Numbered from the stretch's first letter, positions 39,824 through 55,560 are shown. The stretch: 64,000 bases of DNA from GCF_054482595.1 NZ_CM137008.1, one strand, 5' to 3'. The notes: generated by a model not told the origin, from the letters alone. Made by a program: numbers and translations.

Positions 39824-40996
39824 TTAGCCAGCGTTAGCTTTTACGATATCGTCGATCAGTTTATTGACAGGTGCCAGGCTGATTTCACGCGCGGTGCTTA
39901 CCGCTACCGGAGTGGAACGTACTTTATTTGCCAGTACCTGACCGTCACGGTTAGTGGTATTGACGCTCACCAGCGTGGATAAACCGATACGCAGCGGATA
40001 TTGCTCCAGCTGTTTCTGGTCCAGTTCGATACGCACAGGCAGACGCTGAACGACTTTGATCCAGTTACCGGTCGCATTTTGCGCTGGAAGCAGTGAGAAC
40101 GCGCTACCTGTGCCCATATCCAGACCAACCACTTTACCGGTGTATTTCACATCATCGCCGTAAATATCGGTGGTGATGGTGACCGGCTGACCGATGCGCA
40201 TATTGGCAATCTGCGTCTCTTTAAAGTTGGCATCCACCCACATATTGGTGGCTGGAACGACCGCCATCAGCGGCGTCGTTGGGCTAATTTGCGCCCCAGG
40301 CTGTACCGCGCGGCGGGAGACATAACCGGTCATCGGACTGACAATACGAGTACGCTCCAGCGCCAGCCAGGCGTTACGTACTTCGGTGGCAGCCTGTTGC
40401 ACGGCAGGCTGATCTTCCAGTTTAGTCCCCAGAATCATCGCCTGATTGGCATTGTATTGTTGAATCGCGACGTCCAGTTGCGCCTGGGCACTGGTAACGG
40501 CGTCGCGGGCGTGTTGCAGCTCTTCGCGACCAATCAGGTTGGCATTGCCCAGCGGCACACGGCGGTTGTAGTCGCTTTGTGCTTTCGCGAGGGCGATTTT
40601 TTGCACCTCAATATTCGCCTGCAACTGTTTGCTGTTAATCATCAGCTGGTGGGTTTGGCGAACGCTGGAAGCCAGTGCAGTTTTGGCTTTTTCAAACGCC
40701 TGGCGAGCATCTGTCGGGTCGAGAGTGACCAGCACGTCGCCTTCTTTTACAAAATCGGTGTTATCGGCCCAGACTTTCGTCACGCTGCCAGACACCTGAG
40801 ACATAATTTGAATTTGATTCCCTGCCACGTATGCGTCATCGGTTTCTTCGAAGTGACGCAGTACCAAAAACCAATAAATCCCTATCGCTACGGCAATAAT
40901 TATAAAGAGCAAGGTGAGAAGGAGGAGCAGACGCTTACGTTTGCCGCTCTTCTTTACCGGTTGCTGCGGGGTTTGAGTCTCCGCATTTGCGCTCAT
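39824..40996 (-). CDS. emrA: EmrA, multidrug efflux periplasmic adaptor protein (390 aa)
   Basis: Recognised start MSANAETQTPQQPVKKSGKRKR; single N-terminal TM then coiled-coil/HlyD-family fold. Confidence 0.93.
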   Translation of the reverse strand: MSANAETQTPQQPVKKSGKRKRLLLLLTLLFIIIAVAIGIYWFLVLRHFEETDDAYVAGNQIQIMSQVSGSVTKVWADNTDFVKEGDVLVTLDPTDARQAFEKAKTALASSVRQTHQLMINSKQLQANIEVQKIALAKAQSDYNRRVPLGNANLIGREELQHARDAVTSAQAQLDVAIQQYNANQAMILGTKLEDQPAVQQAATEVRNAWLALERTRIVSPMTGYVSRRAVQPGAQISPTTPLMAVVPATNMWVDANFKETQIANMRIGQPVTITTDIYGDDVKYTGKVVGLDMGTGSAFSLLPAQNATGNWIKVVQRLPVRIELDQKQLEQYPLRIGLSTLVSVNTTNRDGQVLANKVRSTPVAVSTAREISLAPVNKLIDDIVKANAG

Positions 40997-52436: not shown

Positions 52437-52781
52437 ATGTATTTACGACCAGACGAGGTGGCGCGCGTACTTGAAAAAGTCGGTTTTACTGTCGATGTGG
52501 TAACCCAGAAAGCGTATGGTTACCGCCGTGGGGAAAATTATGTCTATGTTAATCGCGAAGCGCGAATGGGACGTACCGCACTGGTAATTCATCCAACATT
52601 AAAAGAACGTAGTTCGACACTGGCTGAACCCGCTTCCGATATTAAAACTTGCGATCATTATCAACAATTTCCGCTCTATTTAGCAGGCGAGCGACACGAG
52701 CATTACGGTATCCCGCATGGCTTTAGTTCGCGTGTTGCGCTTGAACGTTATTTGAATGGTTTATTTGGCGAAGCCAGTTAA
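52437..52781 (+). CDS. ygaC: YgaC, uncharacterised DUF2002-family protein (114 aa)
   Basis: ORF-track protein [35 protein letters not shown]...; recognised context. Confidence 0.85.
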
Positions 52782-52817
52782 AGACGCGACTGGCGATGCC
52801 AGTCGCGAAAAGAAGAG

Positions 52818-53267
52818 TCAGGCTTTTACCTGCTGGTAATGGCTGACTTTAAACAGTCGGCGGCAATAATCGAGGAAGTAGCCATAAACCGCCCCCATCA
52901 ACATCGAAACAACGATGTTTGAACTGACCGCCGCCATAATCTGATGCCAGTCTGCGCCCACCACTAACAAGATCGCCACATACACCGGTGACTGGAACGT
53001 CACATAAGCCAGGATATCCGCCAGATTTTTTATCCAGCCCGACGGGCTAACTTTGCGTGCCGCGCGCATAAACAGATCGCGGTACATACCGTATGGCCAT
53101 GCAATTAAGATGTTCACCGGAATCGCTACCAATCTGGAATAAAAAGACTGTTCGAAGCTCATTCCGGAGAGGAAAACTTCAATACACATGTTCACGACAG
53201 AACAGTAAACAACCATCGCGAACGTATCTGCAACTGCATGACGCAAGCGTGACTGCGGTGAGAACAT
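52818..53267 (-). CDS. alaE: AlaE (YgaW), L-alanine exporter (149 aa)
   Basis: Small 4-TMS membrane protein [27 protein letters not shown]... Confidence 0.88.
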
Positions 53268-53934
53268 GCTAATGCTCCTTAATAAAAGCGTAATGGGATG
53301 TTAATGGAGATGAAAGCAGTGGATCTCATTGCCATCTGCATTTTCGCATAGCGTATATCGCTGGCTATGACTAATCAATTAGTGAAAAATTTTTATTTAG
53401 TCAGTTTTTGTAGATAAAATATTCCGTAACGGCTCGTTTTTTGTACATTGTGGATTTTTACATGCCGATATGATTTATTTTCAATTAAATCAATTAGATA
53501 TGACCTTGCCTTTAATTTCACTAATGAAAGTTTGGGGGTGAGGTAACGCTATAAGCGTAGAGAATTCGGTGTATGTCGTGACCGGGTCATTTACAGCATT
53601 TTTTATGCCAGAAAATGTACATTAACAGCAGAAAGCACCAGTGATGGATGTTTTCTTTTATTCTGTTATATTGCATTTTTATTCACTTTGGTTTTGTCAG
53701 GCTTGCGGAATTAGCGAGCAGAGAGCGCCGTTCTGTTCACCAATAATCTAAATTACTCATCAAAATGGCTAATATATAATCTTGAAATTATTCTGAGAGT
53801 TTCAGAAAATAACAGCTGAAATAATCTCGCGCAGGACTGTAAATAGATTAAATTTTGTGGAAATATAATAAGTGATCGCTTACACTACGCGACGAAATAC
53901 TTTTTTGTTTTGGCGTTAAAAGGTTTTCTTTATT

Positions 53935-54339
53935 ATGTCCGTAATGTTACAAAGTTTAAATAACATTCGCACCCTCCGTGCGATGGCTCGCGAATTCTCC
54001 ATTGACGTTCTTGAAGAAATGCTCGAAAAATTCAGGGTTGTCACTAAAGAAAGACGTGAAGAAGAAGAACAGCAGCAGCGTGAACTGGCAGAGCGCCAGG
54101 AAAAAATTAGCACCTGGCTGGAGCTGATGAAAGCTGACGGAATTAACCCGGAAGAGTTATTGGGTAATAGCTCTGCTGCTGCACCACGCGCTGGTAAAAA
54201 ACGCCAGCCGCGTCCGGCGAAATATAAATTCACCGATGTTAACGGTGAAACTAAAACCTGGACCGGTCAGGGCCGTACACCGAAGCCAATCGCTCAGGCG
54301 CTGGCAGAAGGTAAATCTCTCGACGATTTCCTGATCTAA
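53935..54339 (+). CDS. stpA: StpA, H-NS paralog nucleoid protein / RNA chaperone (134 aa)
   Basis: [36 protein letters not shown]...[10 protein letters not shown], the H-NS family DNA-binding motif. Confidence 0.95.
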
Positions 54340-54385
54340 TTACTGAGGCCGGATGTCGCTGCCAGGGCGCGTCCGGCGTCGCTTC

Positions 54386-54910
54386 TCAAGCTCGTTGGTT
54401 CCACGGCATCTTATCTAACAACCTTGCCATTCCACAAAAACCGCTGATTCCTGCAAACAGTAACCCGGCACCAACCAAGCCACTTAATAAGAAGAAACCG
54501 CTATTTACGGTATAACCCAGTACAACGCCGATTAATATTAAACCACCCGCAGCGATCTGCACCTGGCGCATTAACGGCAAGGGTTGAGATTTATTTACCG
54601 CTACTGGCAATCCTGCTTTTTTCCAGCCATCAATCCCATCTTCGAGTAAAAAGATTTCTGCGGGGGCGGCAATCGCTGCTAATTTATCGGCATTATTACT
54701 GGTGCGTTTACCTGCCTGGCAGTGGAATATAATTTGCTCGTGACGTAATTTAGCCGGAAGACCTGACTGTTCCAGCACGGATAATGGAGCCAGATCTGCT
54801 TCAGGAATATGTTCACGAAGATATTCATCAGCATCACGAATATCGATTAACTTTGCGCCGCGTGCGATTAATTCTTGTGCATCATGCGGCGAAATGGTTG
54901 TCAAAGCCAT
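54386..54910 (-). CDS. ygaP: YgaP, membrane-anchored rhodanese (thiosulfate sulfurtransferase, 174 aa)
   Basis: Rhodanese domain with active-site CQAGKR, C-terminal TM helices. Confidence 0.9.
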
Positions 54911-55401: not shown

Positions 55402-55560
55402 ATGGGTTTCTGGAGAATCGTCATCACCATCATTCTGCCGCCGCTCGGCGTGCTGCTCGGTAAAGGGTTCGGTTGGGCGTTCATTATTAATATTCTGCTG
55501 ACACTGCTTGGGTATATCCCCGGTTTGATTCACGCGTTCTGGGTGCAAACCCGCGATTAA
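55402..55560 (+). CDS. yqaE: YqaE, Pmp3/UPF0057-family small membrane protein (52 aa)
   Basis: Not in the ORF track (<60 aa). ATG 55402 after RBS-like agggag; translation MGFWRIVITIILPPLGVLLGKGFGWAFIINILLTLLGYIPGLIHAFWVQTRD. Confidence 0.85.
   Translation: MGFWRIVITIILPPLGVLLGKGFGWAFIINILLTLLGYIPGLIHAFWVQTRD

Follow-up and report, generated by a model that had tools for sequence, protein, structure and literature searches.

Predicted divergent promoters, conserved upstream boxes and a predicted ArgR operator in the AT-rich alaE-stpA intergenic region of Escherichia coli

Identity and base composition of the locus

The 667-bp segment at positions 53268-53934 of the window (the whole 64,000-nucleotide stretch of DNA that was analysed, whose numbering is used throughout unless K-12 is named) is the divergent intergenic region between alaE (ygaW) and stpA of E. 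coli, as annotated in RefSeq for both strain TUM18780 and K-12 MG1655. The flanking genes are placed by the TUM18780 annotation as follows.

52818-53267, minus strand: alaE (ygaW), L-alanine exporter
53935-54339, plus strand: stpA, H-NS paralogue

The window differs from E. coli TUM18780 (NZ_AP023197.1) by 1 SNP across its first 50 kb, and several sequenced E. coli strains match it at 100% identity from position 40000 onward. The intergenic region is single-copy and chromosomal, was found in 5,419 of 5,426 complete E. coli genomes, and was never seen on a plasmid among the 5,419 genomes with a match. Its K-12 counterpart (NC_000913.3, 2798496-2799163) is the same locus, with nearly identical flanks and a central 361 bp that is 97% identical; the two differ by 12 SNPs and a 1-bp indel, mostly within 53477-53731, and several chance open reading frames (ORFs) that are open in the present strain are closed in K-12. 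For positions below 53901, subtracting the position from 2852431 gives the K-12 coordinate. Because the locus is the same, published Lrp, H-NS and ArgR data for the K-12 stpA-alaE region apply directly. The gap is free of annotated features in every record inspected, including the K-12 RefSeq record, in which many verified small genes are present.

The initial annotation had described the segment as the longest non-coding stretch of the window, strongly AT-rich and dense in A/T tracts, and these descriptions hold. At 667 bp it exceeds the next longest gaps of the annotated window (355, 335 and 316 bp). Its GC content is 34.2%, compared with 52.7% in the window as a whole and 43.1% in the remaining intergenic DNA, and only 0.09% of all 667-bp windows in the 64 kb are equally AT-rich, placing the region at about the lowest value. 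A/T tracts of at least four bases occur at 33 per kb, a density 3.5 times that of the window (9.4 per kb), the value for other intergenic DNA being 18.3 per kb. A helical periodicity test detected no phasing of AA/TT dinucleotides at 10-11 bp in the region. The same annotation placed the segment upstream of stpA, which it does adjoin; it lies equally upstream of the divergent alaE, a gene omitted from that title.

In the strain Combat11I9 (L002, NZ_CP021726.1, 1-1539), the DNA beyond ygaM carries genes of the PLP-dependent aminotransferase and carboxymuconolactone decarboxylase families and, unlike the window and K-12, has no nrdH beside ygaM, suggesting an insertion or rearrangement between ygaM and nrdH.

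Conserved ends and a fast-evolving centre

A scan anchored on AlaE, with one genome per species, yielded 80 loci. stpA lies divergently upstream of alaE in 58 of these, with a spacer of 475-789 bp (median 557) and a spacer GC content of 31-43% within loci of 47-57% GC, so that both the length class and the AT-richness of the spacer are kept across many genera. Scoring each column of the E. coli sequence against 53 non-Escherichia species divides the region into three zones.

53268 to ~53500: zone 1, ~230 bp, alaE-proximal, with sharp conserved blocks
~53508-53850: zone 2, low conservation and many indels
~53855-53934: zone 3, ~80 bp, stpA-proximal, conserved again

Two segments of the middle zone show little sequence constraint.

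53508-53625, no strand: fast-evolving spacer, with islands conserved within Escherichia and 48-60% identity to other Escherichia
53688-53761, no strand: AT-rich spacer of variable length, unconserved, with gap fractions of 0.3-0.9

Over the central 350 bp, E. coli is only 48-60% identical to four other Escherichia species apart from small conserved islands, whereas six flanking genes show 65-72% identity at their fourfold-degenerate sites; the two rates are the same for the closest relative (L004). The centre, less identical than fourfold-degenerate sites, thus changes at no less than the neutral rate, and possibly faster, yet it retains its AT content and rough length. This pattern fits a spacer constrained by composition rather than by sequence, as would be expected of a scaffold for H-NS/StpA and Lrp; the scaffold idea does not explain the excess divergence of the middle.

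An IS1 element is present in the E. coli urine isolate A1.S1.18 (L088, NZ_CP146595.1, 2766-3522) at about 53761-53769, ~165 bp upstream of stpA, and cuts the stpA promoter off from alaE and from the ArgR/Lrp module described below. The matches flanking the element overlap, suggesting a 9-bp target duplication.

A predicted alaE promoter with conserved upstream boxes

Zone 1 contains a predicted leftward promoter and leader for alaE, together with a series of AT-rich boxes upstream.

53268-53343, minus strand: predicted alaE 5' leader of ~76 nt; AGGAG and ATG invariant in 24 species
53275-53280, minus strand: alaE Shine-Dalgarno sequence AAGGAG (plus-strand CTCCTT), within the leader
53350-53355, minus strand: predicted alaE -10 element TACGCT; T1, A2, C5 and T6 invariant in 24 species
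53373-53378, minus strand: predicted alaE -35 element TTGATT, 17 bp from the -10 element; TTG invariant in the 24-species alignment, conservation 0.9 in 53 species
53385-53399, minus strand: AT-rich box TAAATAAAAATTTTT, near-invariant columns
53406-53421, minus strand: AT-rich box ATTTTATCTACAAAAA, near-invariant columns
53436-53495, minus strand: distal boxes CAAAAAAC, AAAAATCC and ATTGATTTAA, conservation 0.8-0.9 in 53 species

The four -10 positions that are invariant in the 24-species alignment are ~90% conserved in the 53 non-Escherichia species. Judged from the position of the -10 element, alaE transcription would start near 53343-53345 and give a leader of ~76 nt. Little of the leader other than AGGAG/ATG and a CACT(A/G)C motif is conserved in the 24 species, and RNAalifold returns a consensus structure with zero pairs. 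The CACT(A/G)C motif (53318-53323, minus strand, at about +20 of the leader) has two C residues that are invariant in the 24 species, and no known site or structure accounts for it. In Citrobacter amalonaticus only (L011), a GC-rich insertion of ~140 nt is found inside the alaE leader, just upstream of alaE; it contains GGCCCCTGAGGGGCGAAGCCC-type palindromes, resembles a small repeat or mobile element, and has no Rfam match.

The boxes TAAATAAAAATTTTT and ATTTTATCTACAAAAA are the most conserved sequences of the whole region and span about -41 to -78 relative to the predicted alaE start. In other genera the second box (53406-53421) has the sequence GTCGATAAAAT, which differs from the H-NS motif TCGATAAATT at one position, and scans for Lrp and H-NS sites place weak consensus matches at 53398 and 53411. 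The boxes at 53385-53421 probably act as Lrp sites or as an UP-like element. The distal boxes (53436-53495) are candidate Lrp sites needed for alaE induction. Ihara, in 2017, reportedly obtained an Lrp footprint from -161 to -83 and found a 240-nt fragment to be inducible and a 180-nt fragment not to be. We take this footprint to fit an alaE start near 53343-53345, and it would presumably bracket the distal boxes if the start is as predicted.

A predicted stpA promoter with a short leader

On the opposite side, zone 3 contains a predicted rightward promoter for stpA.

53762-53857, plus strand: stpA upstream region, with TATAAT at 53775-53780, conserved within Escherichia only
53858-53863, plus strand: predicted stpA -35 element TGGAAA; T of TGG invariant in 23 species and ~0.9 conserved in 53 species
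53881-53886, plus strand: predicted stpA -10 element TACACT, with a 17-bp spacer; TA...T invariant in 23 species and ~0.9 conserved in 53 species
53892-53934, plus strand: predicted stpA 5' leader of ~42 nt; GTTAAAAGGTTTT conserved
53918-53923, plus strand: stpA Shine-Dalgarno sequence AAAAGG, conserved

The two ends share a predicted divergent sigma-70 layout, TTGATT-17-TACGCT for alaE and TGGAAA-17-TACACT for stpA, with key bases invariant or ~90% conserved in 23-58 species. The stpA start is placed provisionally at ~53892-53894, corresponding to a leader of ~42 nt whose folding energy is no better than that of shuffled sequence (z = 0.04). A perfect TATAAT (53864-53869) lies inside the spacer of the stpA promoter and is limited to Escherichia, Salmonella and Citrobacter. 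Beyond 53750 only one SNP is found among four diverse E. coli, and the segment 53762-53857 may provide contacts for an activator, H-NS or Lrp, or contain a minor promoter. The sole terminator-like hairpin nearby, TCGCACGGAGGGTGCGA with a T-rich tail after it (53967-53983, minus strand), falls within the beginning of the stpA coding sequence and is probably a chance match.

A predicted two-box ArgR operator in the middle of the spacer

The least conserved part of the region contains a cluster of regulator-type sites.

53626-53641, plus strand: Lrp-like box CAGCAGAAAGCACCAG; AG invariant or almost invariant across 26 aligned long intergenic regions
53649-53666, plus strand: ARG box 1, TGTTTTCTTTTATTCTGT, 5 mismatches to the consensus WNTGAATWWWWATTCANW
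53670-53687, plus strand: ARG box 2, ATTGCATTTTTATTCACT, 1 mismatch to the ARG-box consensus

The two 18-bp ARG boxes are separated by 3 bp (TAT), the canonical layout of a two-box ArgR operator. ARG box 2 is the sole match with at most two mismatches in the 64 kb, where 0.03 would be expected by chance. Conservation was examined in the 29 species with a spacer of at least 600 bp: 20 of them carry the two-box layout 370-405 nt from the alaE ATG at up to three mismatches, the layout is recognisable in ~26, and the columns TG..A...TATTCA are 70-90% conserved. The species concerned include Escherichia, Salmonella, some Citrobacter and Enterobacter, Lelliottia and Leclercia, as well as Pseudocitrobacter, Klebsiella, Raoultella and Yokenella; the module is missing from short-spacer species. 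A new ArgR association 'upstream of ygaW', detected by ChIP-exo and confirmed by EMSA, was described in PMC4381063.

No sigma-70-like promoter with a conserved position was found next to the ARG boxes. Canonical ArgR operators, for instance those of argECBH and carAB P2, overlap the -35/-10 elements of the promoter that they repress. The predicted operator resembles them in having two 18-bp boxes 3 bp apart, one strong and one weak, but differs in its position, which by our start predictions would be ~210 bp from the stpA start and ~335 bp from the alaE start.

The conserved YAG...CTG box ~30 bp upstream of the ARG boxes is a good match to the Lrp consensus in other genera; the homologue of the Lrp-like box in Citrobacter and Salmonella, TAGCATAAAATTC..., agrees with the Lrp consensus YAGHAWATTWTDCTR at 13 of 15 positions. 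The E. coli copy appears to be a weak consensus match. E. coli has a decayed CRP-like half-palindrome (CGTGA-N5-TCATT, 53577-53591) ~75 bp upstream of the ARG boxes, and in K-12 four SNPs fall within the half-palindrome. A good CRP-type palindrome, TGTGA-N6-TCAC(T), occurs only in Klebsiella, Raoultella, Yokenella and relatives (L070, L078, L080-L082 and L073), ~310 nt from the alaE ATG; a good palindrome being absent from E. coli, a CRP site there was rejected.

With these assignments, the part of the region to which a function could not be attached is smaller than the initial annotation held: ~230 bp belong to the alaE side, ~80 bp to the stpA side and ~100 bp to the ArgR/Lrp-type cluster. 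That annotation had also proposed a conservation comparison across Enterobacteriaceae, which, run here on 58 species, finds the two promoter-side blocks and the mid-region ArgR operator conserved.

Lrp and H-NS/StpA at the intergenic region

The initial annotation had likened the segment to DNA bound by H-NS, StpA and Lrp, and the literature on H-NS and Lrp bears this out. By ChIP-seq, lacZ fusions, qRT-PCR and AFM, a strong Lrp peak was located over the stpA promoter and intergenic region and Lrp-mediated bridging was demonstrated at stpA-alaE (PMC10127797). A second Lrp peak lies inside ygaP, and its removal cuts Lrp activation of stpA more than 5-fold; bridging of the stpA-alaE fragment is leucine-sensitive in AFM; and a PalaE-lacZ fusion is Lrp- and leucine-dependent, Lrp repressing alaE slightly in minimal medium and activating it strongly with leucine (PMC10127797). 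Activation of alaE by Lrp in response to alanine is stated in PMC6801825, which cites Ihara 2017, and the literature reviewed in PMC4668568 describes stpA as silenced by H-NS, Lrp-dependent in minimal medium, and responsive to osmotic and temperature shifts. Genomic SELEX assigns both RpoD binding and an H-NS mark to the stpA/alaE spacer (PMC3946193).

Two published signals fall to the right of the intergenic region, namely the second Lrp peak, within ygaP (54386-54910), and a weak ArgR ChIP-chip signal at the promoter of yqaE (55402-55560). The regulatory neighbourhood therefore extends beyond 53268-53934.

Consensus searches locate these proteins poorly. The Lrp consensus YAGHAWATTWTDCTR has 3 matches at three mismatches in the region, compared with ~0.8 expected from the window density, and 77 matches window-wide compared with 67 expected, a scan that is barely or not enriched; the homologous boxes in other genera match the consensus better. 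The high-affinity H-NS motif TCGATAAATT has no good match in the region and one match with two mismatches (53411-53420). The AT-richness itself is of the H-NS/StpA type and is kept in 58 species.

Other Lrp-bridged double-peak regions, such as fadR-ycgB-dadAX and oppA, share with the present one a set of degenerate AT-rich Lrp boxes, a second peak at a distance of ~1 kb, and a higher-order complex that is sensitive to leucine (PMC10127797). The stpA-alaE complex differs in serving two divergent genes with opposite logic, stpA being activated in minimal medium and alaE with leucine or alanine, and in that its individual Lrp boxes are not pinned down by consensus search. H-NS-silenced AT-rich regulatory DNA is also found in the control regions of hns and proU. 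The likeness to these lies in low GC content, many A/T tracts, the H-NS SELEX mark and repression of stpA by H-NS; unlike them, the alaE-stpA region of E. coli lacks A-tract phasing and a good match to the high-affinity H-NS motif, and its composition, shared by 58 species, is not of a foreign kind.

Small RNAs, long leaders and small proteins

The initial annotation considered the segment long enough to hold an unannotated small RNA or small ORF. We regard it as very unlikely that the middle encodes an E. coli-specific small RNA, or belongs to a long stpA leader transcribed from a distal plus-strand promoter. Promoter candidates for such a transcript are an extended -10 element TGTTATATT (53664-53672), which lies over the ARG boxes, and TTTACA-17-TT(C/T)AAT (53457-53485). 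The first is confined to E. coli and overlaps ARG box 2 in a classical repressor layout, and a TTTACA-17-TTTAAT promoter is given for stpA in the SELEX paper (PMC3946193). Yet promoter-like sites are not enriched in the region (3 found, 3.5 expected), and the ARG boxes are not accompanied by a positionally conserved -10 element. Similarly, sliding-window folding finds plus-strand segments of the present strain that fold better than shuffled sequences (53468-53567, z = -3.7; 53593-53692, z = -3.3), but hairpin stability falls from -21.7 to -13.7 kcal/mol in other E. coli phylogroups, and other Escherichia lack the hairpins. These folded segments (z of about -3.5) were rejected as candidates, losing 5-8 kcal/mol in other phylogroups and being unrecognisable elsewhere in the genus.

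Small RNA genes are expected to be conserved in sequence or structure, and here the middle is the least conserved part of the region and its predicted hairpins are not conserved. The promoter and terminator scan returned no terminator-like site inside the region. An Rfam search of 52700-54500 gave nothing credible at E values up to 10, and the homologous loci of 8 other species, including Salmonella, gave no match at the gathering score. The Term-seq sheet of Adams et al. lists no 3' end between 2798243 and 2800533 of K-12, an interval that includes 2798500-2799099.

A small protein translated from the region is more improbable still. Three ORFs were considered individually.

53304-53351, plus strand: 15-codon ORF MEMKAVDLIAICIFA
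53648-53746, plus strand: hydrophobic 32-codon ORF
53341-53279, minus strand: 20-codon upstream ORF in the alaE leader, ending in the alaE Shine-Dalgarno sequence

Such ORFs do exist as strings, and nine ORFs of 15-42 codons were traced in K-12, a further four E. coli sequences and five additional Escherichia species. The 15-codon ORF, which the initial annotation had offered as an example, is present where it was placed and, like the 32-codon ORF, is intact in five diverse E. coli (the latter starting with GTG rather than ATG in L086). It is not conserved within Escherichia, however: a stop interrupts codon 8 in three species and E. albertii lacks the ATG. Its conservation within E. coli follows from its position antisense to the alaE -10 element and leader. 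Differences in the 32-codon ORF among E. coli are almost only amino-acid-changing, and elsewhere its start is lost or stops are gained. E. coli, Escherichia sp. MOD1 and E. albertii keep the ORF of the alaE leader whole, but in three Escherichia species only 5 codons of it are left, and other genera have no equivalent of this ORF; broken in three lineages of the genus, it was rejected as an upstream ORF. The 36-, 23- and 29-codon ORFs are interrupted already in K-12, and all other ORFs of at least 20 codons are broken within the genus, several of them in K-12 itself. None of the nine is conserved across Escherichia and diverse E. coli, and K-12 RefSeq, rich in verified small proteins, has none here. 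The suggestion of an additional small RNA or small ORF is thus not supported by any test run: the ORFs are broken within Escherichia, and neither an Rfam match, a terminator, a conserved structure nor a 3' end in the Term-seq sheet of Adams et al. was found for the region.

Lastly, we give almost no credence to the AT-rich stretch being an H-NS-silenced remnant of horizontally acquired or mobile DNA instead of a native control region: its very low GC content, the rapid divergence of its middle and the IS1 insertion in the spacer of one strain would be in keeping with such an origin, but it occurs once, on the chromosome and never on a plasmid, in 5,419 genomes, its synteny, length class, AT-richness and conserved sequence blocks are shared by 58 species of many genera, and no repeat or transposase remnant is visible among its ORFs.

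Discussion

The region is an ordinary, already known and already characterised bidirectional regulatory region. More specifically, it very probably serves as the bidirectional control region of alaE and stpA, composed of promoters, Lrp boxes, an ArgR operator and a scaffold spacer, without a further gene. At each end, a sigma-70 promoter with a short leader would direct transcription outward, leftward into alaE and rightward into stpA. Upstream of the alaE promoter, the conserved AT-rich boxes, ~150 bp in all, would bind Lrp and thereby switch alaE on with alanine or leucine. In the middle, the conserved two-box ArgR operator (53649-53687) lies beside the Lrp-like box. The remaining AT-rich DNA, unconstrained in sequence, most likely provides a scaffold on which H-NS/StpA filaments form and an Lrp oligomer assembles, the oligomer bridging the region to the second Lrp site in ygaP and activating stpA. 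The anatomy, the pattern of conservation and the ARG-box match come from the present analysis and the binding of Lrp, H-NS and ArgR from publications, while the exact start sites, the protein assigned to each box and the scaffold function are inferred.

How the ArgR operator and the Lrp-like box work is a more speculative matter. Together they might form a distal, enhancer-like part of a looped Lrp/H-NS/ArgR complex, or repress a distal promoter, a pair of readings that we think doubtful even when taken jointly. As part of a looped complex, the module may tie both StpA and the alanine exporter to the status of arginine, leucine and alanine. As a repressor site in E. coli, it may control the predicted extended -10 element at 53664-53672 and, through it, a long-leader stpA mRNA with ~255 nt of leader.

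The locus already serves in the literature as a model of DNA bridging by Lrp and of cross-regulation between H-NS and StpA, and the present analysis matters little beyond a tidy annotation. What it adds are base-level predictions of both promoters from footprinting across 58 species, the placement of an ArgR operator with cross-genus conservation in the seemingly 'empty' middle, and a clear negative result for RNA or peptide genes hidden in the region. Should the ArgR/Lrp module prove to act at a distance on both genes, the alaE-stpA region would be a compact case of several amino-acid-sensing regulators working on one AT-rich scaffold.
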